Assembly: GCA_964565265.1 (NCBI GenBank) | Contig: CAZMEC010000002.1 | Span: forward strand, 1 to 48,454 | Direction of reading: 5' to 3' | Length of the DNA stretch: 48,454 nucleotides | DNA from: an uncultured Myxococcales bacterium | GTDB lineage: Bacteria; Myxococcota_A; UBA9042; CAIXZC01 | In this document: positions 7,594 to 28,716 of the stretch, piece by piece | How positions within the stretch are numbered: the stretch's first letter is position 1 | Layout: each line of letters starts with the position of its first letter | The notes under the pieces: model-generated | The model's input: the letters and a program-made list of their open reading frames with translations, nothing else | Told to the model about the DNA's origin: nothing | Databases searched by the model: none | Translations under genes and position numbers: made by a program

Positions 7594-7625
7594 GGCCCCT
7601 CCGAAACGAAGCACTTTGGCCATAT

Positions 7626-7652
7626 ATTGTATAGCGCCTGCGAGATTGGCAA
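7626..7652 (-). promoter_or_regulatory. possible sigma70-type promoter for the giant CTDC/LamG gene
   Basis: The minus strand reads TTGCCA-N15-TACAAT within an AT-richer stretch about 30 nt upstream of the 7593 start. The spacer is shorter than optimal. Confidence 0.3.
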
Positions 7653-7687
7653 AAAAAGCTGTGGTCTTGGCGGGTTGTCTGGCGGGC

Positions 7688-7879
7688 CTAGTCGAGGTTG
7701 TCGGTGGCATCACCGGGCTTGATCTTCTCCATCATGCGGAGAAATTTCCGGTAAAGGGTCACGAAGTCCTCGCGCTGGACGAAGCTCTTGAGGTCTTTGT
7801 TGCGGGTTGCGGCCTTGAGGATCTCAATGGCTATTGCGACTTCGCCAAGGGTGAAGGACTGACTCTTCCTGGATTCCAT
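7688..7879 (-). CDS. small hypothetical protein, 63 aa
   Basis: The ATG at 7879 is preceded by GGAGG (minus strand CAACGGAGGCCCATCCATG). The longer 81-aa version would begin inside the predicted promoter. The product (MESRKSQSFTLGEVAIAIEILKAATRNKDLKSFVQ...) is helical and charged with no recognisable family. The gene sits in a locally AT-richer islet. Confidence 0.45.
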   Translation of the reverse strand: MESRKSQSFTLGEVAIAIEILKAATRNKDLKSFVQREDFVTLYRKFLRMMEKIKPGDATDNLD

Positions 7880-11947: not shown

Positions 11948-11955
11948 GGCGGCAA

Positions 11956-12747
11956 TCAGCGGGGAAGGCGCCGAAAGCCGGGGCCGAAGTCCACATCGGG
12001 GATGATGTAGACCTTGGTCCTGGTCTCGGGGCGCAGGAAGGCGTGGTCCTCTTCGCTCCAGATGAAGCGGCCGTTGCCCTGCTCGTTGGCGCTGGCGCAG
12101 GGACCGCCCTTGCCGGGGCAGCCCGCGGGGCAGTTCTTTTCCCGAAGGGTCCAGGTGAAGTCCCCGACGGCGGGGGCCTGGCCCCCTTCGGGGGTCTCCC
12201 ATTTCAGCTCCGACCGGTAGTTGTAATTGCCCTGCTGGCAATCCCCGCTCCAGGTGCCCTTGAGGCCCAGCGTGAAGAAGAAGCGGTATTCGACCTCGGC
12301 GCCCAGGGACGCCAGGACGATGAACTCCCGGGTGCGCCGGGACTTCTCGAAGGCCGAGGTGACCACGGCGTGGAGTAACAGGTCCGGCGTGCCGTCATTG
12401 CCAAAGTCCCCCAGCCAGGCGTTCTTGACCTTGGTGTCCAGGGGATTCCACATGGTGGCCTCCACGGCCAGCAACTCGGACCAGTCGCCCTTGGCGCCCT
12501 GGCCCATGAGGAAGACCTTGCCGCTGCCCTCGCAGTTGCGCTTGATGCCAAGCCCGAAGGCCGGAGCCCCCTCCCCCGTGACCAGCTTCACCGTGGTCGC
12601 ATCGAAGTCCGCGGGGGCCTTCGCCGTCGCGGGCAGGAACTTGTCCAGGCGGGTCACCGTCCCGGGACAGTCGAAGATGGGGCTGGGGTCATTGTGGCTG
12701 CACCCAACTACAAGCAAGGCGGCCAACAGGGCAAATCCAGGTTTCAT
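11956..12747 (-). CDS. lipoprotein, 263 aa, with one FG-GAP/VCBS-like motif
   Basis: ATG start with lipobox MKPGFALLAALLVVGCSHN. It contains a GDFGNDGTPDLLL motif. It ends 9 nt before the IPT/TIG gene start on the same strand. Confidence 0.7.
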   Translation of the reverse strand: MKPGFALLAALLVVGCSHNDPSPIFDCPGTVTRLDKFLPATAKAPADFDATTVKLVTGEGAPAFGLGIKRNCEGSGKVFLMGQGAKGDWSELLAVEATMWNPLDTKVKNAWLGDFGNDGTPDLLLHAVVTSAFEKSRRTREFIVLASLGAEVEYRFFFTLGLKGTWSGDCQQGNYNYRSELKWETPEGGQAPAVGDFTWTLREKNCPAGCPGKGGPCASANEQGNGRFIWSEEDHAFLRPETRTKVYIIPDVDFGPGFRRLPR

Positions 12748-12780: not shown

Positions 12781-14148
12781 TCAGGCCCCAGCGATGGTCA
12801 TCTCGCGCACCAGGAAGGTAGGCGCATTTATTGAAAAACGGAACTCCAGATCATTGCCCACGGCCTCCAGTCGTCCCCAGAAGTCCTGGAAACGGCAGCC
12901 CACCGTGATCTCGTGAACTGGATGAACAATCTTGCCATTCTCAACCCAGAAGCCCTCTGCACCCTGGGAAAAATCTCCCGTGGCGGGGTTGAACCCCGAA
13001 CCGATGAAGGAGCTTACCAGAAGGCCCGTGCCAAGGCGACCAAGCAATTCCTCCGGGCTGGCCGGGCCGGGCTTCAGGTACAGGTTGTGGGGCGCCACAC
13101 TGCTGGGACCGGACAGACCCCGGGCGCAGTGGCCGGTGGTGGGAATCCCCAGCTTGCCCCCATACCAGGAGTCACAGGGAATGGCCTTGAACAGGCCCCC
13201 TGAGAACAGCTCCAGGGGCGCCGTGCGGCAGCCGTCCGAGTCAAAGACCGTGCGGCCCGGGGCCACCAGCATCAGGGGATCATCAATCAGCGTCAGCTCC
13301 TCTGAGCCCACCCGGGTACCCAGGGCGCCGTCGAGATAGGAGGCCCCCTTCTGCAAGAGGTCCCCACTGGCGGCCCGAAACAGGTTGCCGATGAGGGCTG
13401 CGCCGGCCTCCGGCTCGAACAGCACGGGCCAGGTCCCGCTGGGGATCTTTTTGGCACCCAGCTTGGCCACGGCCCTGGCCCCGGCCTTCTTCCCCACGGC
13501 CTCCGGGCTCTCCAGGCCCTCAGGGGCCCGGGCCGCGCTGAACCACCAGGAGGTCTTCTTGCTGCCGTCCGCCCCCTCGGCCACGGGCTCCACGGACAGC
13601 GAGCAGTTGCTGGTCAACTCCACCGCGGCCAGCCCGGCGCTGGAATACATGGCCTGGAGACTGGCCCCTCCGGCGCAGCTTGCGCCCTCCGTCATGGTCA
13701 CCGCCGAGTGGTGGCCCAGGGCCGCCTTCTCACAGCGAGACGCAAGCTTGAATGCGCTTGATAGATCAAGATCAAACACCTTGGAATCAAACGCTTCCAT
13801 GTCGGGCTTTCCCAGATACAGCGAGGCCCCGTCCGGCAGGCGGTTCCCCGGGTCCTGGCTTAGCAGCGTGGCATGTTTCAGCAGCCTGGCCACCAGCTCC
13901 GCCGGGGGCACGAAGCGCCCATCTCCCAGGGCCGCCGAGGCACAGCGACCATCCCGAAACAGGCGAATCCCCATCCCCGAGGGGTTGGACTGGAGCAGCT
14001 CCTCGGCCACCCCGGCCCGGCACTTCACCGAGAAGGAGCGCCCCGCCTGAAAGGCCAACTCCACCTCTGCCCCCTGGGCCCGGGCCTCCCGAAGCAGCCC
14101 CTCGGCCCGCGCTTCCCATTGCTGCATGGTCTTCTCGAAGGGGTTCAA
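12781..14148 (-). CDS. pmbA: PmbA/TldE-family metalloprotease subunit
   Basis: 455-aa ORF with the typical PmbA_TldD family layout (N-terminal ...AEVELAFQAGRSFSVKCRAGVAEEL; C-terminal ...GDFSQGAEGFWVENGKIVHPVHEITV). The TTG start at 14148 has GGAGG 6 nt upstream and overlaps the tldD stop (TTGA). An alternative ATG lies at 14127. Confidence 0.85.
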   Translation of the reverse strand: MNPFEKTMQQWEARAEGLLREARAQGAEVELAFQAGRSFSVKCRAGVAEELLQSNPSGMGIRLFRDGRCASAALGDGRFVPPAELVARLLKHATLLSQDPGNRLPDGASLYLGKPDMEAFDSKVFDLDLSSAFKLASRCEKAALGHHSAVTMTEGASCAGGASLQAMYSSAGLAAVELTSNCSLSVEPVAEGADGSKKTSWWFSAARAPEGLESPEAVGKKAGARAVAKLGAKKIPSGTWPVLFEPEAGAALIGNLFRAASGDLLQKGASYLDGALGTRVGSEELTLIDDPLMLVAPGRTVFDSDGCRTAPLELFSGGLFKAIPCDSWYGGKLGIPTTGHCARGLSGPSSVAPHNLYLKPGPASPEELLGRLGTGLLVSSFIGSGFNPATGDFSQGAEGFWVENGKIVHPVHEITVGCRFQDFWGRLEAVGNDLEFRFSINAPTFLVREMTIAGA

Positions 14149-15692
14149 GAGGCACCTCCCATGGTGATTCCGTCAATTCTCACGGTGGGAATCCCCACCC
14201 CCACGGGCACGGACTGGCCATCCTTGCCGCAGGTCCACATGCCGTCACTCATGACCAGATCGTTGCCCACCGCCACCACCCGGCTGAGGGCGTCGGGGCC
14301 GTTGCCGATGATCATCAGATCCTTCACCGGCGAGGTAATCTTCCCATCCTCCACCAGGTAGCTCTCCACGGCCCGGAACACGAAGTCCCCGTTGGCGATG
14401 TTCACCTGCCCGCCGCTGAAGTTGCTGCAGTAGACCCCTCGCTTGCAGTCGGCGACGATCTCCCCGGGGGGAGTCTGCCCGGCCGCCATGAAGGTGTTGG
14501 ACATGCGGGGGATGGGGGGGTGGCGGAAGCTCTGGCGCCGGCCGCTGCCCGCGGCCACCCCGAAGTGGGCGGCGCTGATCCGGTCCTGGAGATAGGCCCG
14601 CAGGATGCCGTCCTCAATCAACACGGCGCGGGCCCCCGGCGCCCCCTCATCATCAAAATGGAAGCTGCCCCGAGCCCCGGGAAGCCGGGGATCGTCAATG
14701 ACTGTGCAAAGCTCCGAGGCCACCTTCTGGCCCAGGCGCCCGGAGTAGCGCGAGCTGCCCCGGCGGTTGAAGTCCGCTTCCAGGGGATGCCCCACGGCCT
14801 CGTGGAGCAGCACGCCGGAGGGCCCCGGCGCCAGGATGAGGACCAGCTCGCCGGAGGGGGCGGGCACAGCGTCCAACATCTTGACCGCAGTGGAGGCGGC
14901 CTCCCTGCCCACGGCCTCAGGGCTGCGGCCTTCAAACCAGACCAGCCCCCGGCGCCCACCGCCACCCGCCCGGGCGGTCTGTCGCAGGTCTCCCCGCTGG
15001 GCCACCACCGCTACATTGAAACGCAGGAGGGGCTGGACATCCACGGCCACCCTCCCCTCACTGGTCAGCACGGCCACCTCGCGGAGCTCTTCCACCAGGC
15101 TCACATCCACCTTCCTGACCAGGGGGGACACGGCCAGGGCCGCTTCCCGGGCCCGGGTGATAAGCTCGACGCGGCGCTCCAGGCCGACCTTCAAATCGCA
15201 GGAGGCGCCTTGGTACAGCTCCTCCCGGAGGTGGGCCTGGACCAGAGACGGAAGCGTCCCCCCCGTCCCCCCTGCCTGTTGAAGGGAGGCCGCGGCCAGG
15301 TCTCCAGCAGCCGCCAGCACCAGGGAGGCGTCAAAGCTCTGGGTGTAGCCGCTGGCCACCGTGTCCCCCTTGAGGGACCGCAGCCCCACGCCGCCATCCA
15401 AATCCCAGGCCAGATCCCGAAACACCCCGTCTTCATTCATCAGGGCCAGGGACTCGCGCCGCTCAAGGAACAGTTCGGCAAAATCCGCCCCCCGGGAGCG
15501 CAGCCTCGCGAGGGCCTCCAGGGCCGCCTCCCGGGGAAGCCCAAAGAGCCCCTCCGATCCGGTGGCCTGCCCCCCAAACCCCTCCGGCAGCCCCCCCGCA
15601 AGGAGCGGGTCCAGGCCACTGAGCAGAAGGGCCACCACGGAGCCCCCGAGGAAGTCCCGGCGACTGAGATTCTTGGATAACTTCGTCAGCAT
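14145..15692 (-). CDS. tldD: TldD-family metalloprotease with twin-arginine (Tat) signal peptide
   Basis: HEAVGHPLEADF metal-binding motif and family-typical C-terminus (GGQVNIANGDFVFRAVESYLVEDGKITSPVKD). The N-terminus MLTKLSKNLSRRDFLGGSVVALLL matches the S-R-R-x-F-L Tat consensus. The ATG at 15692 is preceded by GGAG. A TTG at 15704 is an alternative start. Confidence 0.9.
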   Translation of the reverse strand: MLTKLSKNLSRRDFLGGSVVALLLSGLDPLLAGGLPEGFGGQATGSEGLFGLPREAALEALARLRSRGADFAELFLERRESLALMNEDGVFRDLAWDLDGGVGLRSLKGDTVASGYTQSFDASLVLAAAGDLAAASLQQAGGTGGTLPSLVQAHLREELYQGASCDLKVGLERRVELITRAREAALAVSPLVRKVDVSLVEELREVAVLTSEGRVAVDVQPLLRFNVAVVAQRGDLRQTARAGGGGRRGLVWFEGRSPEAVGREAASTAVKMLDAVPAPSGELVLILAPGPSGVLLHEAVGHPLEADFNRRGSSRYSGRLGQKVASELCTVIDDPRLPGARGSFHFDDEGAPGARAVLIEDGILRAYLQDRISAAHFGVAAGSGRRQSFRHPPIPRMSNTFMAAGQTPPGEIVADCKRGVYCSNFSGGQVNIANGDFVFRAVESYLVEDGKITSPVKDLMIIGNGPDALSRVVAVGNDLVMSDGMWTCGKDGQSVPVGVGIPTVRIDGITMGGAS

Positions 15693-15925
15693 CTTGGTCT
15701 CCAACTCCCGCTGGGGCCATTGGCGGCCCGGAAATGAGGCCCAATCCTAATCGGCCAACCCCAGATTGCACAACCGGAAAAGCCCCGCCGGGCGCGATTC
15801 CCGATGGTTGGCGCGGCCAGGATTGTGGGGGCTCTGCGGGATTGTGGAATGGGCCCTGGAAAATCGCTTTACCTGCTGGACGCGAATCAATAGGATAGGA
15901 CCGCTGACTTAGGCTGGAGGGAACC

Positions 15926-17047
15926 ATGGCTCGCAGCAATTTCCTGATGATTCTTGTGGCTGGTGCGTTTTTCTTGGCGTTGGCTGCCTGCGGAGGCAGC
16001 AACACCCCAGGAGCGGAGACCGATGGTCTGGGCCCGGATGGGCTCACCGATGGGGTCAACGACCCGGATGCTGACAGCACCATCGACCAGGACACCAAGG
16101 AGATGGGTCCCCAGCCTGATGGCGTGGACACGGATGGCCAGGCCCTGACGGATACCCTCAATGTGGATGGGGACGGCTTCATTCCCGATGGCATTGATGT
16201 GGACATCTACGGGGAGGACCTTGAGACCGTTGGCATTGACATTCCCGATGGCGGCCTGATTCTGCCCACCATCTGCGAAGACAACTCCGACTGCAACGGT
16301 GGCTACTGCATGGAAATGCCCCCCAGCAGCGGCAAGTTCCTCTGCGCCGCCCCCTGCGAGGACGGCTGCCCCACGGGCTGGAGCTGCAAAGACATGTATG
16401 TGGATGGCCCCGACGCAGTCTTTGTCTGTGTGCCATCCTTTGACAACCTCTGCCGGAACTGCACCAAGGACTCCGACTGCCTCTTCTCGGGCTCGATCTG
16501 CATCAAGGAGGGTTCCGATACGGGCTTCTGTGGCAAGTCCTGCAACCCCGCCAAGACGGATTGCCCCACGAACTTCGAGTGCCGCATCGTGAAGGACAAC
16601 ACCGGCGCCCCCCTGGCCTACCAGTGCGCCCCCAAGCCCGGCTCCTGCTGCGGCGGCAACAAGTGGCTGAACTGCGACGACGAGAACGAATGCACCGGCG
16701 ACTCCTGCGTGCCCGGCACGGGCTGCGTCTTCAACCCGGCCGAGGACGGCACCACCTGCGGCACCGAAGAGCCCTGCTTCACCTCCACCTGCGCCTCCGG
16801 GGAATGCACCAGCTGGCCCATCCCCGACGACCTCACTTTCAACGGTGTGGACGACGACTGCGATGGCGAAACCGATGAAGATGTCTACAAGGGCCTGCGC
16901 GTTGACCACTTCACCTACGGGTCCGGCGCGGCCACCATGTCCGGCGGCAACTTCCGCCTCATGGGCGTCATGAACGCTCCTTCCTACCACGGCATTTCCG
17001 CTGGCGGCGGCTACAGGGTCAACCCCGGTATGCCCCTGGTGCAGTGA
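15926..17047 (+). CDS. Cys-rich lipoprotein with CTDC-like unit and DDDCDG metal-binding-type motif (cassette 1, small gene)
   Basis: GGAGGG SD before the ATG and a lipobox (MARSNFLMILVAGAFFLALAAC). An acidic D/G/T-rich linker follows, then many paired Cys, CDDENECTGDSCVPGTGC and FNGVDDDCDGETDED. It is a paralog of 20668-21657. Confidence 0.8.
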   Translation: MARSNFLMILVAGAFFLALAACGGSNTPGAETDGLGPDGLTDGVNDPDADSTIDQDTKEMGPQPDGVDTDGQALTDTLNVDGDGFIPDGIDVDIYGEDLETVGIDIPDGGLILPTICEDNSDCNGGYCMEMPPSSGKFLCAAPCEDGCPTGWSCKDMYVDGPDAVFVCVPSFDNLCRNCTKDSDCLFSGSICIKEGSDTGFCGKSCNPAKTDCPTNFECRIVKDNTGAPLAYQCAPKPGSCCGGNKWLNCDDENECTGDSCVPGTGCVFNPAEDGTTCGTEEPCFTSTCASGECTSWPIPDDLTFNGVDDDCDGETDEDVYKGLRVDHFTYGSGAATMSGGNFRLMGVMNAPSYHGISAGGGYRVNPGMPLVQ

Positions 17048-17083
17048 TTTGATTCTTACCTTTCGGATACCACGGAGGACACC

Positions 17084-20000
17084 ATGAATCGCATCTGGTT
17101 GCTTTCACTGCTGTTGCTGGGGTGGATGTTCCCTGGGCAGGACCTTTCCGCTGAGCCCGTCAAGACGCTGGTGCACTACCAGGGTTACCTCACGGATCTT
17201 GAGGAGACCCCGGTTAGCGGCGAGTGGTCCCTGACCTTTGCATTCTTCGCTGAAGCGAGCGGCGGGACGGCCTTCTTCGTTGAAAGCCAGACCGTGGAGG
17301 CCCACGACGGCGTATTCTCCGTGTCCCTCGGGGCCAAGCCCAACCTCGCCATCAACCCGGCGAAGTTCCAGACGGGCGTGGTCTGGCTTGAGGTCTCCGT
17401 CTCGGGCGACCTGGGCGACAACATGGTGATGCAGCCCCGGCAGCGCGTGACCAGCCAGCCCTTTGCCATGTGGTCAGGCTTTGCCGAGACCTGCGGCAGC
17501 GCCACCAACGCCCTCAGCCTGGGGGGCAAGGCCGCAAGCGCCTTCGTGACCCTGGACTCCATTGGGGACCTGTGCCTGGGCACGGAGGACCTCAACGGGC
17601 TGCTGACTGCGGCGGGGTACCTGCCCGGCGCCCACTACACGGACGCTGATGCCCAGATCTACCTGAACTCCATCGGCGTGGTCCCCGGCAACGGCTATGG
17701 CGACGACGATGTGGGCGCCTACCTCCTGGCCAACGGCTACGAGCCCGGCCCCTACTTCAGCGGCCTGTGGCAGGACCTCCAGGGCGCCCCGGATGTCTCC
17801 CAGTATGTCACCACCGCCCAGCTCTCCACCTATGTGACTCCCGACAATGTGGATGAACTCCTGGCCGGCGATACGGTCAAGAATGCCATGGCCCAGAAGG
17901 GCGTCTTCCTTATGGCAGATGGCTCCGTGGCCGCCAAGGGCAACCTGGACTTTGCGGGCAACCAATTGCTGAACATGGTGGTTCAGAACAGCGCCGCCGA
18001 CAAGGCCCCCACCAATCCCCAGAAGGGCCAGCTCTGGTACGACAGCACGGGCAACTTCCTCAAGGTCTACGACGGTACCAAATGGTCCACCCTGGGCACC
18101 ATCGACAGCATCAACCTGAACTGTCAGGGCTGCGTGGATCCCCAGGATGTGTCCTTCAACTATGCCGCTTCTGCGGAAAAGGGCGGCCCCGCCCTGGCGG
18201 CCCTCTCCCTGGTTTGTGACGGTTGCGTCGACGCCCAGGATCTGGGCATCAACTGGGCCATGGCTTCCGGCCCTGGGGGCGAGGCCCTCTCTGCCCTGGA
18301 CCTGAACTGCGACGGCTGTGTCAGCCTGGGCAACCTTGCGGCGGAGGTCATGCGGGCCAGCAATGTGAAGTATGACAACTCGGGCAGCGGCCTGGCCGCC
18401 ACCACGATTCAGGGCGCCATCGATGTCCTGGCCAAACAGGGCCCCTCCAATGTCGTTGAAGGCAACGGCACTGTGGTTTCCCACATGGGCGACTGGTCCC
18501 TCAAGGCCTTCGCCAGCGGCACCATGTACATGCACCTGATGAACCCCGCGACCCCCAAGGTGATCGCCTATCTCTACGGCCTGGAAAGCATGGAGTTCAC
18601 CACCGCCGCGGACTCCGTGGTCACCAGCGACACGGGCCTCAATGACTACGGCCACAATGTCACCGGCACGGCTGGCCAGTCCAACCTCAATGTGGGCTCC
18701 AACGCCTCGGTGTTCGTGGCGGGCGATCGCATCCTGATCTACCAGCAGGTGGGCACGGGCAACAGCGCCACCAATGCCGGTCGGTGGGAACTGGGCGAGG
18801 TCAAGTCCGTCTCAGGCAACACCCTGACCCTGGCCGCCCCCCTCAAGAACAGCTACTTCGACAACGGCCCCACGGACGGCCAGGCCCAGGTGGTCAAGGC
18901 TGCCACCTACAACAGCCTGGAAGTCCAAAGCGGTGGCAACCTCCACCCCAAGTATTACCTGGAAGACGACGCCGACCGGGGCGGCATCATCTATATCCGC
19001 GCCAACACTGTCACCGTGAAGAACGGCGGCAAGATCCACGCCGACGGCTACGGCTACGAGTCCATCGACGCCAGCCAGCGCCCGGGTGACTCCGAGTGCT
19101 CGGCCAATCGCGGCAGCCAGCACGAGCCCGTCTGCTCGGGTGGCGGCGGCGGCTATCCCGACGGCACCTGTGGCGGCGGCGGCGGTGGCAACAAGACCGT
19201 GGGCAAGGACGCCTCCACCACCAGTTGCGGCCAGGCCAATATCGGCCTCGCCGGTCAGGCCAAGGGCGCCAACAATACCACGCTGCTCACCATGGGCGGC
19301 GCCGGTGGCACCTCCGGGCAGTCCTCCAACTCCAGCCGCATGGGCAATGGCGGCGGTCTGGTCGTCATTGGGGCCAAGACCATGACCGTGGAAGCGGGCG
19401 GCATTATCTCTTCCAACGGCAACAACGGCCAGTCCAACAACTGCGGCGCCGGCGCCGGCGGCACGGTGGCCCTGTTCGTGGACAAATTGACCAACGGCGG
19501 CACCATCCAGGCCATCGGCGGCAAGGGTCACAACACCCCCAATGGCGGCGGCGACGGCGGCGACGGCTGGGTCCTCAACAGCAACACCGTGGCTGGCATC
19601 GTGGAGACCGCGGTGCCCATGGGCGTCGAGATCTGGGTTGACGGCAACAATGTCACCAACGCCCTGGGCGACCCCAACGGCCGCAGCACCCCCCACTGGG
19701 ACGCCACCAACAAGAAGTGGGGCCAGACGGGCACCCTCGAGTGGAACTCCGGCCCCCTGGATCTGACCGCCGTTGCGGCCTGGGGCCTGGGCGAACACAA
19801 CATCCAGCTCAAGGAGACCGGCGGCGTGGGCGGTCTGGTCAAGATGTACACCTATGTGGTCTACCCCTTCACCAAGGCCCAGCCTCCCACCAACGACACC
19901 TGCGCCACCGCCACTACTCTCAATGTAATGGGCGGCCACCTGGTGGTCTCCGGCACCACGGAAGACCTCATGGGCAAGATCAAGGCCGCGGACGACCTGG

Positions 20001-20650
20001 TTCAGCCCTTCTGTGGCGGCGCCGGCGGTCCCGATGTGGTCTACAAGTTCGAGCTCACCGACTGGCGGCACCTCAAGTTCACCGTGAACGCGCCCTTCAC
20101 GCCGCGCCTCTACATCCGCAAGGACAACTGCACCACCGGCAAGATGGTGGCCTGCGGCTCGGGCAGCTTCGAACCTGACGACCTCAAGCCCGGCGTCTAC
20201 TATCTGGTCGTGGACAGCGACGGCAACTCCCTCAAGGGCAACTTCAACATCACCATCGACGCCACCGTTCCCGGCCCGCCCCCCAACGACACCTGCGCCA
20301 ACCCCGCCGAGTTGATCTTCAACGACGCCGGCAAGGCCGAGCGCTACGGCGTGAACCTGTTCTCCGTCAACGACTACTTCGCCGGCTGTGGCGGGGTCAC
20401 TGGTCTGGACAATGTGTTCAAGTTCACCATTCCCAACGGGGCCACGAAGTTCACCGTCAGCATCGCTGCGGACTTCAACCCGGTGATCATGGTGGCGAAC
20501 AACCTCTGCTCCACCAACTCCCTGGTTGGCTGCGTCGCAGGAAAGACCTATTCGCTGCAATACCCGAACCCAGGTGACTTCTACCTGTTCGTGGATGGCA
20601 AGACCGCAGCGGACAAGGGCGAGTACACCGTCACTGTCACCATTGAATGA
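17084..20650 (+). CDS. secreted 1188-aa protein: tail-fibre-like N-terminal half, Gly-rich beta-helix-like core, two PPC-like C-terminal domains (cassette 1, large gene)
   Basis: GGAGGA SD and a signal peptide (MNRIWLLSLLLLGWMFPGQDLSA). Tail-fibre-like motifs are present (LVHYQGYLTD..., KGQLWYDSTGNFLKVYDGTKW, YDNSGSGLAATTIQGAIDVLA). The core is Gly-rich (CSGGGGGYPDGTCGGGGGGNK...GGAGGTSG...GAGAGGTVALF...GGGDGGDGWV). Two PPxNDTCA-led domains each end in a GxY...I-type strand. Confidence 0.85.
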   Translation: MNRIWLLSLLLLGWMFPGQDLSAEPVKTLVHYQGYLTDLEETPVSGEWSLTFAFFAEASGGTAFFVESQTVEAHDGVFSVSLGAKPNLAINPAKFQTGVVWLEVSVSGDLGDNMVMQPRQRVTSQPFAMWSGFAETCGSATNALSLGGKAASAFVTLDSIGDLCLGTEDLNGLLTAAGYLPGAHYTDADAQIYLNSIGVVPGNGYGDDDVGAYLLANGYEPGPYFSGLWQDLQGAPDVSQYVTTAQLSTYVTPDNVDELLAGDTVKNAMAQKGVFLMADGSVAAKGNLDFAGNQLLNMVVQNSAADKAPTNPQKGQLWYDSTGNFLKVYDGTKWSTLGTIDSINLNCQGCVDPQDVSFNYAASAEKGGPALAALSLVCDGCVDAQDLGINWAMASGPGGEALSALDLNCDGCVSLGNLAAEVMRASNVKYDNSGSGLAATTIQGAIDVLAKQGPSNVVEGNGTVVSHMGDWSLKAFASGTMYMHLMNPATPKVIAYLYGLESMEFTTAADSVVTSDTGLNDYGHNVTGTAGQSNLNVGSNASVFVAGDRILIYQQVGTGNSATNAGRWELGEVKSVSGNTLTLAAPLKNSYFDNGPTDGQAQVVKAATYNSLEVQSGGNLHPKYYLEDDADRGGIIYIRANTVTVKNGGKIHADGYGYESIDASQRPGDSECSANRGSQHEPVCSGGGGGYPDGTCGGGGGGNKTVGKDASTTSCGQANIGLAGQAKGANNTTLLTMGGAGGTSGQSSNSSRMGNGGGLVVIGAKTMTVEAGGIISSNGNNGQSNNCGAGAGGTVALFVDKLTNGGTIQAIGGKGHNTPNGGGDGGDGWVLNSNTVAGIVETAVPMGVEIWVDGNNVTNALGDPNGRSTPHWDATNKKWGQTGTLEWNSGPLDLTAVAAWGLGEHNIQLKETGGVGGLVKMYTYVVYPFTKAQPPTNDTCATATTLNVMGGHLVVSGTTEDLMGKIKAADDLVQPFCGGAGGPDVVYKFELTDWRHLKFTVNAPFTPRLYIRKDNCTTGKMVACGSGSFEPDDLKPGVYYLVVDSDGNSLKGNFNITIDATVPGPPPNDTCANPAELIFNDAGKAERYGVNLFSVNDYFAGCGGVTGLDNVFKFTIPNGATKFTVSIAADFNPVIMVANNLCSTNSLVGCVAGKTYSLQYPNPGDFYLFVDGKTAADKGEYTVTVTIE

Positions 20651-20667
20651 AGCAGCAGGAGTTGAAA

Positions 20668-21657
20668 ATGAGCCCTCATCTGAAACTTGCGCTTCTGTCC
20701 TCCCTGCTGCTGGCCCTCGGGGCCTGCGGCGGAGGCACGGACCAGCCCCTGGGCCAGGACGGCGGGGTGGACACGATTGACGCCGTGGATGTCCCCGATC
20801 CGGAGACAACCACCGACCTGGACACCCAGGACCCCAAGGATGAACTCGACGGCGAGGTCGATGTTGAACTCAATGGCGAGTGCAACAAGCACGAGGACTG
20901 CGTGGGCGGCTACTGCATCGAGTTCCCTCCCGGCGGCGGCAGCAACATCTGCGTCATCCCCTGCCCCGAAGAGTGCCCCACGGGTAGTAGCTGCAAGCTG
21001 GTCTACATTGACGGTGGCTCGCCGGTCTCGGTTTGCATCCCCGACGCGGCCCAGCCCCAGTGCACCATCTGCAACAAGGATGCCGAGTGCGTCTACGCCG
21101 GGGCCCGCTGCGTCAAGGGCAATGCCCCCTACGGCTACTGCGTCAGCCCCTGCACGGGCGAAACTGACTCCTCCTGCGTCGCCGGCCATGAATGCCGTCT
21201 GGCCCCCGTCGAACTCAACGACGGCCTCTTCTACTGCCAGCCCAAGGCCCAGTCCTGCTGCGTCAACGGCGCCCTCTCCGGCTGTGACGACGACAACCCT
21301 TGCACCGAGGAATACTGCGGCCCGGCCCTGGGCTGCCTGCACCGCCCCCAGGAGGGCGAATGCACCGGCCCCAACCCCTGCATGGCCTACAGTTGCCTGG
21401 AGGGCGAGTGCCTGGGCTGGCCCATCACGGACGATCCGACCTTTGACGGTGTGGACGATGACTGCGACGGCTCCACCGACGAAGATGTGTGGCGGCAGCT
21501 CAAGATCCTGCATCACAACTACGGCTCTGGGGCTGGCTGGATGACTGGCCCCGGGATGAAGCTCTGGGGTGTGGTCAACGCCCCTGGCTACCACGGCGTC
21601 ATCAAGGATTTCAACAGCGGATTGATGCTGCGGCCCGGCATGCCGCTGAACCCCTGA
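20668..21657 (+). CDS. Cys-rich lipoprotein, paralog of 15926-17047 (cassette 2, small gene)
   Basis: The ATG at 20668 has AGGAG 6 nt upstream, with lipobox MSPHLKLALLSSLLLALGAC. An alternative ATG at 20647 overlaps the preceding stop (ATGA). It shows the same Cys pattern, CDDDNPCTEEYC, FDGVDDDCDGSTDED and the conserved tail NAPGYHG...PGMPL. Confidence 0.8.
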   Translation: MSPHLKLALLSSLLLALGACGGGTDQPLGQDGGVDTIDAVDVPDPETTTDLDTQDPKDELDGEVDVELNGECNKHEDCVGGYCIEFPPGGGSNICVIPCPEECPTGSSCKLVYIDGGSPVSVCIPDAAQPQCTICNKDAECVYAGARCVKGNAPYGYCVSPCTGETDSSCVAGHECRLAPVELNDGLFYCQPKAQSCCVNGALSGCDDDNPCTEEYCGPALGCLHRPQEGECTGPNPCMAYSCLEGECLGWPITDDPTFDGVDDDCDGSTDEDVWRQLKILHHNYGSGAGWMTGPGMKLWGVVNAPGYHGVIKDFNSGLMLRPGMPLNP

Positions 21658-21680
21658 GCGGTACCCCCAAGGAGGCCCAA

Positions 21681-24600
21681 ATGAACCTGCACAGACTGGC
21701 GTTGATGCTCACCGCGCTGTCCCTTCTGGCTGCGGCACCAAGGCAGGCCCTGGCAGCGGTGCCCGCCCTTATTCACTACGATGGCATGCTGGAGGATGCC
21801 TCCGGTACCCCCATCTCGGAGCAACGCACCATCACCTTCTCCATTTTTGATGTGGCCACGGGTGGAACCGCCTTGTTCAAGGAGTCCAAGCCGGTCACCC
21901 CGGTGGCGGGCGTGTTCTCGGTGGTGCTGGGTACCCAGCCCGGCAATTCGCTTGCCGCCGACCTGTCCGACGGCCGGGATCTCTGGCTGGAGATCAAGGT
22001 CCAGAAGTCCGGCGAGAGCGCGGTGACCCTTACCCCCCGCCTGGCTTTGGCCCGAAATCCCATGACGACCCTGGCCCGCACCGCCACCAAGGGCAACGAC
22101 ACTCTTGACGCCACCGCCATTGACGGCGTCCCTGCTGCCAACCTGATCTCCAGCGACAACCTTCAGGGCAACTACCTCACTGACAGCAACTTCGGCGAGC
22201 TCATGACCACCCTGGGTTACCTTCCAGGGGCAGAGTACAGCGACGCCCGCCTCCAGCAGTTCTTGGACTCCACCGGCGTGGTCCCCCACCCCAACTACAC
22301 CCATGCCACCCTCGGCACTTACCTTGGCGCCTCCGGCTACGAGCCGGGCCCCTATTTCAGCGGTCAGTACGAAGACCTCCAGAACAAGCCGGACCTGACC
22401 CCCTACGCCAAGAACCAGGCCCTGGTGGGGTTGGCTCAGGACACCGATTTGGTGCCCCTGGTCACCGACGATGCCACCATCGCCCAGCTCAAGGCCGCCG
22501 GGATCTTCCTGCTGGCGGACGGCACGGTGGCCCTCAGCGGCAGCCTGGACCTGGCCAACCATCAGGTAATCCGGGCCGTGGTGCACCGCACCGCCGCTGC
22601 CGCAGCCCCCGCCTCTCCCAAGAAGGGGCAGCTCTGGTACAACAGCACCAACAACTCCTTGAACCTTTACACCGGCGCTGTCTGGCGCACCCTTGGGGCC
22701 GTGGACGCCACCGACATTCAGTGCAACAAGTGCGTGTCCCCTGAAAACCTGGGCTTCGGCTTCGCCACCTCCGTGGCAGCCGGAGGCGTGGCCAGCCAGA
22801 CCTCCGATGTGGTCTGCGACGGCTGCATCACCCAAAAAGAGCTGGACCTCTCCTACGCCGAGGGCGAGTTCCCCGGTGGCCCGGCCCTGCTGGCCCAGGA
22901 TCTCAACTGCGTGGGCTGTCTGGCCACGGCGCAGCTTGATCCCATCGATTTTGGCGCCCACTCTTTGGAGTTCGACTCCACGGCCTCCGGGCTGGCTGCG
23001 GCCACCATGCAGGAGGCCTTGGATCAGATGGCCCTGGTCGGCCCCGGCGGCATCCAGGAAGGCAACGGCGCCACCATGGCCTACACCGGCGACTGGCAGG
23101 CCCGGGCCTCCTCCACCCAGACCCAGTTCCTGCACCTCTTCAACCCCGGCACCCCCAAGGTCATCACCTACCTGTATGGCGTGGACTCGCCCAGCACCAA
23201 CAACGCGGTGGACGCCACCATCAGCGGGGACACTGCGCCCAACCAGTACGCCTACAATGTGACGGGCTCCTCCGGGCAGACCTCCATGACGGTCTCTTCC
23301 AATGTGGGCATCCTGAAGGCCAACGATCACATCCTCATCTACCAGACGGTGGGCATCAACACCTCTGCCACCAATGCCGGCAACTTTGAACTGAACCAGA
23401 TCAAGTCCGTCAGCGGCAACACGGTCACGCTGTTCAGGGCCCTCAAGAACAACTACTCTGACAACGGCCCCACCAACGGCCAGACCCAGGTGGTGCCCGC
23501 CGCCGCCTACAAGAAACTGACGATGAACAACGGCGGCGCCATCCGCCCCTCTTCCTACCTGACCTCGGACGCGGACTACGGCGGCATCGTCTATGTCCGG
23601 GCCGACGAGATCATCATGAATAGCGGCTCGGCCATCCACGCCGACGGCTACGGCTTTGACGGCTACGACTCGAACAACTATCGCGGCGACTCCGAGTGTC
23701 GGGCCGACCAAAGCAGCGAGCGCGTGGCCAACTGCTCGGGCGGTGGCGGTGGCTGCTGCGATACCTACTGCGGCGGCGGCGGCGGCGGCAACAAGACCGC
23801 CGGCAAGGATTCCTCCTCCACCAACTGCAACTCCTCCTACATGGGCCGGGGCGGCACGGCCAAGGGCAACGACACCCCCACCATCCTGACCATCGGTGGC
23901 GCCGGCGGTGGCTCGTACCAGTCCTACAACAGCGGCACCAACGGCAACGGTGGCGGCCTCGTGGTCATCGGCGCCAAGAAGATCACCGTGAACAGCGGCG
24001 CCCGCATCTCGGCCAACGGCAACGCGGCCCAGAACGCCTACTGTGGCGGCGGCGCCGGCGGCACCGTGGCGGTCTTTGCGGCGAATATCACCAACAACGG
24101 CACGACTCAGGCCACCGGAGGAGCGGGTCACAAGAGTGGCGGCTACTTCGGCGGCGACGGCGGCGACGGCTGGGTGCACCTCAAGACCCCCATCACCGGG
24201 GCCATCGACAGCTCAGTGCCCAAGGGCGTGGTCCTGAAGATTGACGGAACCGACATGACCGCCCTCCTGGGGGACCCCAACGGCAAGGGCAGCCCGAATT
24301 GGGACTCCACCCTCAAGAAGTGGGGCAAGGACGGCGTCACCGGCTGGAGCAGCGGCCCCCTGGACCTCTCCAGCCTCATCACCTGGGGCCTGGGCGAACA
24401 CCGCCTTGACCTGGTTGAGACCGGGGGCATCGGGGGTCGCCTCAAGGCCTACACCTACATCATCTACCCCTTCAGCAAGGCCACCGTGCCGGCCAACAAT
24501 ACCTGCACCTCGCCCCAGGAACTGGATGTCATGGCGGGCTCCCTCAGTGTCTCCGGCACCACCGAGGACACCATGGGCAAGATCCGCGCCACAGACAACA

Positions 24601-25247
24601 ACTCCCAGCCTGGCTGCGGCGGCGCCGGGGGCCCCGACACGGTGTACAAGTTCACCCTCACGGACTGGAGAACCGTCAAGATCAACACGGCTGCGCCCTT
24701 CACTCCCAAGGTCTACCTGCGCAAGGACGACTGCCAGACGGGCCAGGCTGTGGGCTGCGGCGGCGCCGCCCTGTCCGCCGACCTCAAGTCCGGCACCTAT
24801 TACCTGTTCATGGATTCGGACGACGCGGCCCAGCGCGGCAACTACAACATCTCCATCACCGCCACCGCCCCGGCCCCGCCCCCGAACGACACCTGCGCCT
24901 CACCCCAGCTCATGAGCTTCGACGCCAACGGCGTGGCAGAAGCCTACGGGGTGACCCTCTTCTCCACCAACGCCTTCACCGCCTGCAACGGCGAGCAGGG
25001 CCTGGACAATGTGTTCCAGTTCACCGTGCCGGCCGGCACCCTCAAGGTGACCTACGACCTCACCACCACCTTCAACCCCATCCTGTCCTTCAAGCGTGAC
25101 GCCTGCACCAACGCCCCCTATAGCTGCGCGCCCACCAAGCACTTCGAATACGACTACCCCACCCCGGGCGTCCAGTTCGTAGTGGTGGACGGCAAGACCG
25201 CCGCCGACAAGGGCGAGTACACCCTGAAGATCACCCTCACCAAGTAG
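21681..25247 (+). CDS. secreted 1188-aa paralog of 17084-20650 (cassette 2, large gene)
   Basis: The ATG at 21681 has AAGGAGG upstream, and the longer ORF from 21489 overlaps the previous gene. It has a signal peptide (MNLHRLALMLTALSLLAAAPRQALA). It is collinear with the cassette 1 protein along its whole length and identical in length. Confidence 0.85.
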   Translation: MNLHRLALMLTALSLLAAAPRQALAAVPALIHYDGMLEDASGTPISEQRTITFSIFDVATGGTALFKESKPVTPVAGVFSVVLGTQPGNSLAADLSDGRDLWLEIKVQKSGESAVTLTPRLALARNPMTTLARTATKGNDTLDATAIDGVPAANLISSDNLQGNYLTDSNFGELMTTLGYLPGAEYSDARLQQFLDSTGVVPHPNYTHATLGTYLGASGYEPGPYFSGQYEDLQNKPDLTPYAKNQALVGLAQDTDLVPLVTDDATIAQLKAAGIFLLADGTVALSGSLDLANHQVIRAVVHRTAAAAAPASPKKGQLWYNSTNNSLNLYTGAVWRTLGAVDATDIQCNKCVSPENLGFGFATSVAAGGVASQTSDVVCDGCITQKELDLSYAEGEFPGGPALLAQDLNCVGCLATAQLDPIDFGAHSLEFDSTASGLAAATMQEALDQMALVGPGGIQEGNGATMAYTGDWQARASSTQTQFLHLFNPGTPKVITYLYGVDSPSTNNAVDATISGDTAPNQYAYNVTGSSGQTSMTVSSNVGILKANDHILIYQTVGINTSATNAGNFELNQIKSVSGNTVTLFRALKNNYSDNGPTNGQTQVVPAAAYKKLTMNNGGAIRPSSYLTSDADYGGIVYVRADEIIMNSGSAIHADGYGFDGYDSNNYRGDSECRADQSSERVANCSGGGGGCCDTYCGGGGGGNKTAGKDSSSTNCNSSYMGRGGTAKGNDTPTILTIGGAGGGSYQSYNSGTNGNGGGLVVIGAKKITVNSGARISANGNAAQNAYCGGGAGGTVAVFAANITNNGTTQATGGAGHKSGGYFGGDGGDGWVHLKTPITGAIDSSVPKGVVLKIDGTDMTALLGDPNGKGSPNWDSTLKKWGKDGVTGWSSGPLDLSSLITWGLGEHRLDLVETGGIGGRLKAYTYIIYPFSKATVPANNTCTSPQELDVMAGSLSVSGTTEDTMGKIRATDNNSQPGCGGAGGPDTVYKFTLTDWRTVKINTAAPFTPKVYLRKDDCQTGQAVGCGGAALSADLKSGTYYLFMDSDDAAQRGNYNISITATAPAPPPNDTCASPQLMSFDANGVAEAYGVTLFSTNAFTACNGEQGLDNVFQFTVPAGTLKVTYDLTTTFNPILSFKRDACTNAPYSCAPTKHFEYDYPTPGVQFVVVDGKTAADKGEYTLKITLTK

Positions 25248-25629: not shown

Positions 25630-26436
25630 CTACAGGTCCACCTGCTCGATGGAACCGAAGCCCTCGCCCCAGAACCGGGCGCCGACCTTGCCGAAGGACT
25701 CGGGGCTGTCGGTGACGAAGCAACGAATGCTGCCCGCCCCACCTGAGGGACGGCGCTTGATGAGGCCGGCATTGATCAGCCGCTCCAACTCGTCGGCCAC
25801 TGCGGAGGCGCTGTCCACCAACTCCACCCCCAGCCCCCGCCCTCTTGTGATCTGGGCGATGTCGGCCTTGAACAGGGGATAGTGGGTGCAGCCCAGCACC
25901 AGGGAATCAACGCCCGCGGCCAGCACGGGCGCCAGATAGCGTTCCAGGACGAGGCGGGCCACCTCGGTGCCCATCCAGCCCTCCTCCGCCAGGGGCACCA
26001 GCAGGGGCGATACGGCGCTGGTCACCACGGCCTCGGGCCGCAGCCTGCGGATGGCCTGCTCGTAGGCGCCGCTGTTGATGGTGACGGGCTGGCCGATGAC
26101 CCCGATGCGCCCGCTGGGACTTCGGCGCACCGCTGTGGCCGCGCCAGGCTCGATGACCCCCAGCACCGGCACGGCCACCATGCCGGCGATGTTGGGCAGG
26201 GCCATGGAGGAGACTGTGTTGCAGGCCACCACCAGCGTCTTCAGGGGGAAGCGGGCCAGGAAGGCCGTGCAGCGAACGGCGTAGGATCGCACGGTCTCTG
26301 GGGACTTGCTGCCGTAGGGAAGCCGGGCCGTGTCCCCCAGGTAGACGAAGTCCTCGGAGGGAAAGCGGCTGGCCAGTTCGCGGGCCACGGTGAGGCCCCC
26401 AATGCCCGAGTCAAACACCCCGATGACACCGTTCAT
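25630..26436 (-). CDS. murI: glutamate racemase
   Basis: 268 aa with [11 protein letters not shown] and VVACNT motifs and the second catalytic-Cys region LVLGCTHYP. Its ATG overlaps the upstream stop (ATGA). Confidence 0.9.
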
Positions 26437-28712
26437 TGCGGGTCTCCTTTGGTTTGGAAGTCCTGGGGAAGCCGGAAGGGGAAGCTGTCCTGCCCCACGG
26501 CCAGGGAGTCCAGGTTCAGGTCCTCGAAGGCGAAGTCGTTGTGGAAGTCAAAGACCTTGCTCTCGCCCATCAGGTAGGCGGTCATCTCCACCTCCAGCGT
26601 GTCCGGGCCAAAATGCATCGGGGCCTTGGGGTCTTCCAGATTGGGCACCGGGTTCTTCAGTTCGGGGCCAGGGAAGCCCGCCGGCAGGCGCGGCAGCACA
26701 AAGCTGGTCCGGGCGGGTGGCAGCACCACCTCCCAAAGCAGGTGGGTGTCCGGGCCCCCGATGGCGTAGCCCTTCAGCAGCGGGTTGGCGGGCGCCGACA
26801 CCAGATAGGAGAGGCGCAGCACCCAGGCGTCCGGCTGGAAGGCCCCGCCCAGAGGCAGCCAACTGAAGTGCCGGTCCTTCAGGGTCCCGCCGCAGCGGTC
26901 CAGGGGATAGAAATGTCCAGGGGGCTCGGCCAGGACGCAGGACCCCGGGGGGTCAGGAATCTTCGTGGAGGAGGGGCAGCGCCGCGCCGGGGTCGGGTCC
27001 GGCGGGGACGGACTCTCCATCACGGGCAGGTCCAGCCACACGAAGGAACGATCCAACGCCAGGGGCTGGTCCTTTGGAAAGCGGCGGCGGATGACCGTGC
27101 TGATGCCCGGCGGATCGGAACCCAGATAGGCCCCACGGGCCGCCAACAGCACGAACATCCTCGAGAGGTCCAGCCCCAGGTCCAGCACTGACTGGCTGTC
27201 CGGCGCCGGGTACTTCAGGCCCACGGGGTTCTCGAACCCGGGCTGATTGTAGTCCGTGTTCACCTGACTGAAGATGTAGCCCAGGCCCCCGGTGTCCATC
27301 ACCGACAGCGCCATGCCGTTGGGGAGGGTGGCACCCGTAACGGGATCCGAGGGCAGGTCCCCCACATTGGCCTCCAGCACTTGAATCTCGCCGCTGCGCG
27401 TGAAGTCCACCGACAGATCCAGGTCCACCCAGCTCTCCTCGCCGGCCCGGATCTCCACCAGCTTCATCCCAAAGGCCAGGGGCTTGAAGTCCATGCGGTA
27501 GGGATCCTGCATGGCCTTGTCCACGCCCCGGGCCTGCCCCGCCAGCACGAAGATCAACTGCTTGCCCGGCTTCATGCCCTCAATCCTGAAGGTTGCGCTG
27601 CCAGGGTCGCCGTCGGTGTAGAGCACCATGTTGGGCGGCGTGAGGTCCGTGATCAAGGAGCCCAGGCCCCCCAGCTTCACATCCTTGTATTGCAGCACGA
27701 AGCCCATGTTCAGCGAACACAGCGGCGCATTGCGGATGGCCGTCTGGATCAGCCCGACATTGAGCAGCGAGAAGCCCTCCGACGGGGGAAAGGCCTCCAC
27801 CGCCCCGGTTCCGTCAAAGCCCCGCACCAGCCCCGTCAGCACGCCGGTCTTTTCGTCCTCCAGGCCGGGCACCGGGTCCAGGGGCACCAGGGGCAGGGAC
27901 ACGCTGGCCGCGTTGACCTCCACCACCGTGAAGTAGCGGCAGCCCTCGGCCCCCGCAGTGATGTCCACGGGGCCCTCCAGGTCCGGGTCCTGGAAGTCCA
28001 CCGAGCCGTCCGCCCCCGTGACCCCCACCCAACGCGTGGCCGGGTCCCTGCTGAGAGAAACCAGGATGCTTGCGCCCGCAAGAGGCAGGGGCTTGGTGGT
28101 ATCGGCCTCCAGGGCAGCCCCATCCACCGCGAACACCTTCAGATAGCCGTCAATTCCCCCTACCCCTTCAAAAGAGCCCGTCGCCACCCCGGCCGCAGGC
28201 ACCTGCACCGATCCCAGGTAGACCAGCAGAAAGGCGGTCACCCTGGTGCCCAGGTACTCGGCCTCAAAGGCCACCCTTGCCACACCCTCCTGGGCGCTGG
28301 TAAGGACGCACCCATAGCGCCCCTGGCCCTCTCCGACCACCGGGCTGAGGTCCCCCAGGTCGGCGCTGCCCAGGATGGCCAGCCCATCCACCGGGCCTCC
28401 ACCGGGAGCCCGGGCCACAACGGTCAGACGCACCAAATGCCCCGCCTGCGTTTCCTCCGAGGGCGCGGCCGTCACTGACAGCAGCAACGCCTCCACGGAG
28501 ACCTCGCCCAGGGGGGTCGGGTCCTCCCCATCCCCCAGCCCATCACCATCCGTGTCGGGGTTCAAGGGGTCCGTCCCAAAGCGCGCCTCCTGGGCATCAG
28601 AGAGGCCATCTCCGTCGGAATCCGGGGCCTCCTGGGGATCGCAGGCCGGCGCCGCCAGCAGGAGGAACAGCACCAACAGAGCCTTGCCAAGAAATCCCAG
28701 CCCAGGGTTCAT
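26433..28712 (-). CDS. lipoprotein (about 759 aa) with N-terminal thrombospondin type-3-like Asp repeats
   Basis: The ATG at 28712 gives [24 protein letters not shown]. It starts 5 nt after the upstream gene stop. It carries [35 protein letters not shown]. The rest is beta-rich with no recognisable catalytic motif. Confidence 0.8.
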
Positions 28713-28716
28713 GGGG

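Follow-up and report, generated by a model that had tools for sequence, protein, structure and literature searches.

Among predatory bacteria, the sole family of fibres for prey recognition to have been described is that of the mosaic adhesive trimers (MATs) of Bdellovibrio bacteriovorus, and how the cell retains the invariant N-domain of these fibres is an open question (PMC10769870); the identification of a partner or surface receptor for this domain awaits further study, according to the authors (Caulton et al. 2024, PMC10769870). In the S74 class of MATs, as in phage fibres, the Peptidase_S74 domain serves as an intramolecular trimerization chaperone (PMC10769870). A 2025 review lists MATs for Bdellovibrio only and mentions no myxobacterial equivalent (PMC12428579). 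Here, we describe a block of four genes on a 48,454-nucleotide (nt) stretch of DNA from an uncultured Myxococcales bacterium (the window; positions 1 to 48,454 of contig CAZMEC010000002.1, assembly GCA_964565265.1), in which two genes for Cys-rich lipoproteins, S1 and S2, alternate with two genes for large, secreted, modular proteins, L1 and L2. The S lipoproteins track the N-terminal module of the L proteins, both in genomic co-occurrence and in patterns of selection. We would give roughly an even chance to the interpretation that the L proteins are MAT-like surface fibres with, at this locus, two cognate lipoprotein partners that may act as anchors or assembly factors.

The MAT superfamily is the closest known system, although membership of L is not established at curated thresholds. 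The likeness is one of design: both comprise proteins of ~1000-1200 amino acids (aa) from predatory or social delta-type bacteria, in which a signal peptide is followed at once by a conserved β-rich N-domain (~100-130 aa), then by a stalk resembling a fibre and by distal modules that can be exchanged, and both are multigene families having relatives with and without Peptidase_S74. They differ as follows: the distal part of L consists of a large AgmC_N-like β-rich module plus two PPC-like domains; the most variable part of L is this middle module, and not the extreme C-terminal tip; and the L genes lie in long tandem arrays headed by a conserved lipoprotein gene, whereas MATs are without a known partner. 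Phage tail fibres and tailspikes, which include S74-chaperoned fibres and the β-helix depolymerases LKA1 gp49 and AP22 gp54, are also reminiscent of L: the L stalk carries a motif that also occurs in prophage 'tail fiber protein' genes and in PHROG 8309, the predicted L fold resembles tailspike β-helices, and the N-module is also found fused to Peptidase_S74. In contrast to the phage proteins, the L proteins are chromosomally encoded with Sec signal peptides, they have no phage genes nearby and no virion-attachment domain, and the fold scores are low.

Organization of the S1-L1-S2-L2 block

The four open reading frames (ORFs) were confirmed on the + strand, and all have the high third-position GC of real genes (the GC content of the window is 64-72%). 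They form an operon-like unit: S1 (15926..17047) encodes, by translation, a 373-aa lipoprotein; L1 (17084..20650; 3567 nt) an 1188-aa secreted modular protein; S2 (20668..21657) a lipoprotein of 329 aa, or of 336 aa if the ATG at 20647 is used in place of that at 20668; and L2 (21681..25247; likewise 3567 nt and 1188 aa) a paralogue of L1 with the same module order. The junctions are as tight as had been claimed in an earlier interpretation made from the DNA letters alone (hereafter, the sequence-only reading): the intergenic gaps are 36 nt (S1-L1), 17 nt (L1-S2) and 23 nt (S2-L2), the stop codon of L1 overlaps an ATG (ATGA at 20647-20650), and a Shine-Dalgarno-like sequence precedes each downstream gene, namely GGAGGA before the start of L1, GGAG 7 nt 5' of the S2 ATG at 20668, and AAGGAGG before the start of L2. 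S1 and L1 share a reading frame and are separated by just a TGA and 12 codons (17045-17086). A scan for sigma-70 promoters and terminators across 15.6-25.7 kb gave signals at the level of shuffled sequence, such that the operon boundaries are undefined.

Downstream of its signal peptide (MNRIWLLSLLLLGWMFPGQDLSA|EP, with cleavage at the bar), L1 can be divided into four parts: a β-rich, MAT-N-like N-domain of ~100 aa that follows immediately (aa 26-125; 17159..17458), a stalk containing repeats (aa 126-463; 17459..18472), a Gly-rich and β-rich middle module that is homologous to the N-domain of AgmC (aa 464-930; 18473..19873), and a C-terminal pair of PPC/collagen-binding-like domains with conserved Cys in each (aa 931-1060 and aa 1061-1188; 19874..20647). 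In L2, where the signal peptide ends in ...APRQALA|AVP, the corresponding regions span 21759-22058, 22059-23069, 23070-24470 and 24471-25244, respectively, all of these features being on the + strand. On the same strand, the signal peptide of S1 ends in a lipobox (LAAC, with Cys22 at 15989-15991), and it is followed by an acidic disordered linker (aa 23-115), a Cys-rich region that contains a Dicty_CTDC-like repeat and the sequence DDDCDGETDED (aa 116-322; 16271-16891), and a Cys-free tail (aa 323-373; 16892-17044). S2 is built in the same way, with a LGAC lipobox (Cys at 20725-20727), a Cys-rich region at 20881-21501 and a tail at 21502-21654.

An independent metagenome-assembled genome (MAG), uncultured Myxococcales Loclat_bin-20748, carries the same S-L-S-L block (contig CAIXZC010000473.1; locus L007), sited behind the same TldD/PmbA gene pair as in the window; therefore, the tandem repeat is not an assembly artefact. 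The L1 and L2 orthologues of this sister MAG (1189 and 1188 aa) are, respectively, 84 and 79% identical to the window proteins, and the ratios of nonsynonymous to synonymous substitution rates (dN/dS, or omega) lie between 0.24 and 0.36 for the four genes (0.24 for L1; 0.36 for S2 overall), which indicates purifying selection.

Linkage of S to the N-module of L

When 1.84 billion representatives were searched with a profile, ~40,000 proteins were found that share some module with L, and these include approximately seven clusters of full-length L proteins. The genomic matches all fall in Myxococcota-type MAGs, and the L family is rare, unannotated and confined to such MAGs: neither L1 nor L2 matches a Pfam family at E up to 0.1, and sequence searches of the PDB with L1, S1 and a family profile returned nothing at E up to 1. 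The individual modules are spread more widely. The PPC-type pair occurs in thousands of Myxococcota proteins, with up to 19 copies in giant ones, and proteins of 2000-7700 aa also contain the AgmC_N-type module. Other distal parts that accompany the N-module include P_proprotein, FGE-sulfatase, pectinesterase-like, VOMI and Peptidase_S74 domains, and the family, therefore, has the mosaic design of a constant N-terminal part with exchangeable distal domains. It is also a multi-copy family: Loclat_bin-20748 alone has two clustered L genes and at least six more (at least eight in total), and other MAGs have tandem arrays of 3 to ~13 L genes.

Within these genomes, the usual arrangement is one S gene followed by a tandem series of two to ~13 L genes, and only the lineage of the window and L007 has the 1:1 cassette. 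The order S-L-L-L... is seen in L003, L004 and L005; L082 has an S gene with five or more L genes behind it; L022 and L021 have S-L-L... and at least three L genes; and L006 has three L genes. In contig CAZFVN010000002.1 (L019, L020 and L011), an S gene at ~30.9 kb heads an array that extends to ~83.7 kb (~52 kb), in which eleven L genes are present in the pieces covered and a total of ~13 is inferred once a 12-kb gap between those pieces is allowed for. L001 departs from this pattern, having the order L-L-S followed by a gene for a 1412-aa Cys-rich protein. The two-gene unit envisaged by the sequence-only reading does not, then, extend to the relatives, in which one S gene heads two, three, at least five or ~13 L genes.

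The distribution of S follows that of the N-module. A hidden Markov model (HMM) of the S tail was built from 11 tails and run against the six-frame translation of 1.27 Mb of DNA, comprising the window and 83 loci. It found exactly 14 genes, two of them absent from the training set, and every one directly adjoins an N-module gene; none was found in the 47 loci that have the PPC-type module only. One of the 14 is in L081 (353-3092), where a 221-aa 'mini-S', reduced to a lipobox and spacer, the first of the Cys subdomains, the DxDCDGxTDED motif and the tail, is encoded directly upstream of a 681-aa protein that has only the N-domain and the stalk repeats (approximately nine, of the form GYxPGPxYSDxDxQxYL) in common with L and that ends in a P_proprotein domain. 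Thus, the association follows the N-module and not the distal modules. Genes for alpha-2-macroglobulin lie downstream in this locus.

Patterns of selection point the same way. In arrays headed by one S gene, the paralogues are 83-100% identical in the N-domain and 52-85% identical in the middle module. The N-domain dN is 0.04-0.06, the lowest of any part, with a dS of 0.33-0.70 that is like the rest of the gene; the middle module, with a dN of 0.16-0.42, varies more between the paralogues of an array than any other module. Recent gene conversion, as a possible source of the near-identical N-domains, was rejected on account of this unexceptional dS; rather, low dN combined with normal dS implies selection on all L paralogues that share an S to retain a single N-domain sequence. 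For L1 and L2, each of which has its own S, the order is reversed: dN is 0.74 in the N-domain and 0.40 in the middle module, and the corresponding identities are 36 and 54%. Each of these two N-domain types is constrained between the window and L007 orthologues (omega 0.19-0.24). Moreover, a third N-domain type is common to the solitary L genes of the sister MAG, at 73-86% identity, and, therefore, the N-domains fall into discrete classes.

Age and divergence of the paralogues

L1 and L2 are collinear and, as the sequence-only reading had judged by eye, identical at about half of their positions (48% across 1163 aa, with 4 gap positions; BLASTP, E = 0). S1 and S2 are 38% identical (E = 2e-70), and the features said to be common to them, namely the Cys pattern, the DDDCDGxTDED motif and the NAPxYHG...PGMPL tail, were all confirmed. 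Both L1 and S1 are closer to their counterparts in other lineages (52-54 and 49-51%, respectively) than to L2 (48%) and S2 (45% in the same comparison); thus, both duplications predate the lineage split, in agreement with the old duplication that had been proposed. A search for DNA repeats between the copies found no tract above ~75% identity and no recent gene-conversion tracts.

That the repeat might consist of assembly-collapsed or expanded alleles, or of strain variants placed in tandem, was a natural concern for a sequence of uncultured origin and a family whose arrays are often fragmented in MAGs. It can be set aside with near certainty: the low protein and DNA identities between the copies, the recurrence of the gene order in an independent assembly and the purifying selection acting on each copy all speak against it.

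The equal length of L1 and L2 had been taken as a sign of a strict length constraint, and this proposal did not survive closer inspection. Global alignment requires 6 gap columns in each protein, the L1 orthologue has 1189 aa, and the full-length relatives range from 1107 to 1199 aa, plus one of 1364 aa, with one subfamily having reading frames of ~1370-1440 aa (counted from the upstream stop) and carrying an insertion near aa 800-830. The common length of 1188 aa is, therefore, a coincidence arising from compensating indels, and the L fold is collinear and modular, with no sign of a constraint on total length. Nor is divergence concentrated in the C-terminal PPC-like domains, as had been anticipated: along the alignment of L1 and L2, identity is lowest in the N-domain (18-40%) and highest in parts of the middle and C-terminal modules. 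At such divergence, dN/dS taken directly between L1 and L2 is of little use, and comparisons between orthologues and within arrays were used instead.

Predicted structures of the L modules

For the N-domain of L1, AlphaFold2 (AF2) predicts strands, with predicted local distance difference test (pLDDT) values of 55-76. The NCBIfam model NF053851 (Bdello_MAT_N) gives sub-threshold matches to 13 of the 15 family members (best E 2.4e-5), with L1 and L2 at 19-23.6 bits where the cut-off is 60, which suggests a weak similarity in sequence to the MAT N-domain of Bdellovibrio. A search of a 5.8-billion-protein set with an N-domain profile yielded just short unnamed fragments and gave no link to named Bdellovibrio proteins.

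The stalk is modelled at a pLDDT below 50 (aa ~123-463) and contains three kinds of sequence element. Helical 20-aa repeats of the form GYxPGxxYxDxDxQxYL occupy about aa 177-225, with three copies in L1 and approximately nine in the 681-aa protein of L081. These are followed by a phage-fibre-like GQLWYD...W motif (aa 284-336), which matches PHROG 8309; the L1 stalk shows 45-47% identity with the N-terminal parts of 'tail fiber protein' genes from Streptococcus prophages, a weakly supportive match given that the gene in question is a 257-aa one from the lysis region and that the similarity is confined to the N-terminal motif. Finally, there are three CxxC repeats, each of ~31 aa (aa 344-420; 18113-18343). 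The latter recur in P0016, a 694-aa protein encoded at 3080-5164 of L083, where an L-type N-domain and CxxC repeats are fused to Peptidase_S74, and this fusion is the best indirect evidence that the stalk may belong to a trimeric fibre.

The middle module is modelled with confidence (pLDDT 80-93) and probably adopts a β-helical fold. NCBIfam NF047640 (gliding_AgmC_N) is matched by all 15 family members at ~75 bits, L1 and L2 scoring 75.5 and 73 bits over model positions 32-397 of 412 (aa 511-835 of L1, which align to model positions 36-397). The equivalog cut-off of 275 is not reached, and sequence similarity thus points to homology with the N-domain of AgmC at the level of the domain, and not to an AgmC equivalog. 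Compared with Myxococcus xanthus AgmC itself, L has about a quarter of the cut-off score, a different overall architecture and no linked motility genes. In Foldseek searches, the module matches the tailspikes 4ru4 and 4y9v with E ~1e-6 over at least 600 columns, yet with template modelling (TM) scores of just 0.14-0.15; matches in BFVD to β-helix proteins and depolymerases, including the KP34 depolymerase, are at a similar level. Invariant acidic and His residues are located in this module.

The two C-terminal domains of L1 are related to one another, the internal repeat being evident as a second BLASTP high-scoring segment pair. They are modelled with a pLDDT of 70-84, and the top Foldseek match in the PDB is to the s3a-s3b tandem collagen-binding domains of clostridial ColG (5iku; E 1.6e-9, TM-score on the target 0.36). 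The models thus lend support to the PPC-like character that had been assigned to these domains, and indicate a tandem pair of PPC/collagen-binding-like β-sandwiches. By contrast with the PPC and ColG domains, there is no match to Pfam PPC (PF04151) in L1 or L2 at E up to 0.1, and the L domains bear conserved Cys pairs.

The S lipoproteins

Both S1 and S2 satisfy the lipobox pattern [LVI][ASTVIG][GAS]C, and an equivalent Cys follows the signal peptide in every S homologue. The homologues have a common layout: a lipoprotein signal peptide, a 50-90-aa acidic low-complexity spacer, a Cys-rich region, the DxDCDGxTDED motif and a Cys-free tail of ~50 aa, with at least 22 Cys invariant throughout. 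Constraint within S is strongest in the tail, where omega is 0.09 (S1) and 0.14 (S2) against the L007 orthologues. Pfam matches fall short of the cut-off of 27 bits for Dicty_CTDC (PF00526; 23.8 bits for S1 and 26.0 bits for S2), and S2 additionally scores 16.6 bits, also under the cut-off of 27, for the MopE motif (PF11617). The nearest relatives are the MopE-type and Dicty_CTDC lipoproteins of the Myxococcota, with which S has in common a DxDCDGxxDE motif, a CTDC-like repeat, the lipobox and the acidic linker; S differs from them in that the Pfam matches are under the cut-off and in its distinctive ~50-aa Cys-free tail, which is found only beside N-module genes in the 83 loci and the window. 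The AF2 model of S1 has a mean pLDDT of 52, with some confidence for aa 112-240 only, and Foldseek returned no match below E 1 for this poor model.

Two loci, L031 and L032, encode much larger S-like Cys-rich lipoproteins (reading frames of 777-870 aa), which contain numerous CTDC-type repeats and end in a tail unlike that of S; these precede genes that share just the C-terminal third of L (~aa 815-1188).

Discussion

The sequence-only reading had ventured that the large proteins might represent a diversifying surface adhesin or receptor-binding protein of a predatory or social bacterium. The host is indeed a myxobacterium and, to judge from their sequences, the L proteins look like fibres of this type. 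Exported by virtue of its Sec signal peptide, L would be extracytoplasmic and built like a chimeric fibre adhesin: the conserved β-rich N-domain would serve as a cell-proximal docking module, the repeat stalk probably trimerizes, and the middle module and PPC-like sandwiches would bind variable ligands borne by prey, matrix or substratum, and might also cleave them. For its part, S would be an envelope lipoprotein that engages the N-module of L via the first Cys-rich subdomain, the DxDCDGxTDED motif and the ~50-aa tail, and that either holds the fibre at the envelope or helps its assembly. In most relatives, one S would serve a tandem array of L proteins, in which the N-domain is fixed as a plug and the middle module diversifies; in the lineage described here, two S types and two N-domain types would constitute two plug-socket pairs. 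The earlier suggestion of a lipoprotein dedicated to each large protein is, therefore, upheld in part: it fits this locus, given the contrast in N-domain dN, but not the other loci, where one S heads many L genes and some L genes are without an S. A more ambitious proposal, which we hold only tentatively and consider appreciably less probable than the fibre interpretation itself, is that S is the cell-envelope receptor for MAT-type N-domains, with specificity classes of S and N-domain; fibre sets would then be separately anchored, and the arrays would amount to libraries of binding modules on one lipoprotein socket.

Several observations weigh against the interpretation of L as MAT-like fibres with cognate S partners. 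The matches to the MAT_N and AgmC_N models are far under the curated cut-offs (at most 23.6 against 60 bits, and 75 against 275 bits, respectively), the AF2 models of the stalk and of S are of low confidence and S is without a fold match, and there is no evident route for the export of L across the outer membrane. At least seven L genes have no S gene in the upstream DNA at hand (L002, L008, L009, L010, L012, L014 and L027), and P0016 is also without an adjacent S gene, a 95-aa ORF overlapping its start. Mirror-tree comparisons of S (Cys-rich part and tail) with four regions of L gave uniformly high values from the shared phylogeny, and the N-domain was not singled out. Moreover, one genome (L005 and L001) has two S types with just one N-domain type, and the arrangement with two S genes is found only in the lineage of the window and L007, such that the contrast with the one-S arrays represents a single evolutionary event. 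Independently of these considerations, an in-frame stop interrupts the L paralogue of L012 in the sister MAG (~3604-3608), which reflects either a pseudogene or a sequencing error.

Three other explanations for the locus have to be weighed. The L proteins could be secreted enzymes that degrade polysaccharide or matrix, combining a tailspike-like β-helix depolymerase with two carbohydrate- or collagen-binding-type modules and released for the digestion of prey or polymers, in which case S would be an unrelated co-expressed Cys-rich lipoprotein, an inhibitor or an immunity factor. The Foldseek resemblances of the middle module to tailspike depolymerases (4ru4, 4y9v and, in BFVD, the KP34 depolymerase) and of the C-terminus to ColG are in keeping with this, as are the fusion of the N-module to a pectinesterase-like domain in one relative and the invariant acidic and His residues of the middle module. 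We nevertheless regard it as unlikely, since the tailspike TM-scores are low, no catalytic family is recognized by Pfam or NCBIfam, and neither the tracking of the N-module by S, which persists even where the enzyme-like part is replaced, nor the N-domain dN of ~0.05 in arrays would be explained. Enzymatic and fibre functions are, in any case, compatible, given that tailspikes are both anchored and enzymatic. A role for S as a dedicated periplasmic helper in the folding, trimerization or export of the L N-module, comparable with the chaperones of phage tail fibres and absent from the final structure, seems to us about as unlikely as the release of L as an enzyme. The genomic link between S and the N-module would support such a helper equally well; one S for up to ~13 L genes would suit a catalytic role, and the Peptidase_S74-bearing relatives are without an adjacent S gene. 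However, S has a lipid anchor, an acidic spacer of 50-90 aa and more than 20 disulfide-type Cys, features that are seen more typically in structural proteins of the envelope than in chaperones, and seven L genes have no S in their vicinity. As regards the choice between anchor and helper, S may be either, as the data do not discriminate between them.

It is more improbable still that, instead of prey recognition, the genes serve gliding motility or adhesion to the substratum, as part of a machinery with adhesins of the AgmC/CglD type. In favour of this, the host is a myxobacterium, the AgmC N-domain model is matched throughout the family, and a neighbouring gene encodes a TSP3-repeat lipoprotein with a faint match to CglD, but the AgmC score is indicative of domain-level homology only and there are no glt, agl or cgl genes in the window. 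Additionally, large arrays with a diversifying middle module are better suited to variable ligands than to a single motor adhesin; a literature search on AgmC yielded nothing usable.

The locus and its relatives provide a myxobacterial family that follows the design logic of the MATs, and a testable candidate for the partner of the N-module. The one-socket arrays and the two-socket pair amount to a natural experiment, and the fact that it is the middle module that diversifies within arrays points to it as the site of ligand specificity. Even if S were to play no role, a rare and unannotated multigene family of surface proteins from myxobacteria would have been described for the first time.

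Genomic neighbourhood

The genes around the block are dense in giant secreted or Cys-rich proteins. On the - strand upstream, 2479-7713 encodes a 1744-aa protein with two LamG-type and five Dicty_CTDC repeats, and 7949-12241 a 1430-aa TIG/choice-of-anchor-Z protein; downstream, the 777-aa TSP3-repeat protein with the faint CglD match is encoded at 26433-28766 (- strand), and 30121-34170 (+ strand) encodes a 1349-aa disintegrin-like protein with a MYXO-CTERM/JDVT-CTERM end. A prophage or tailocin origin for the locus was considered and rejected, the neighbours being TldD/PmbA, a racemase, ribD, nrdR, rpiB and other surface proteins. The TldD/PmbA metallopeptidase pair (12781-15704, - strand) is divergent from S1; the same pair flanks the S-L cluster of L007 and also, with PrkA-DUF444-SpoVR genes intervening, those of L003 and L005. 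Towards the far end of the window, two adjoining genes for BrxC/BrxD-family ATPases (PF10923), followed by one for a DEAD/Cas3-like helicase, occupy 41870-46070 on the + strand and may constitute a defence island.

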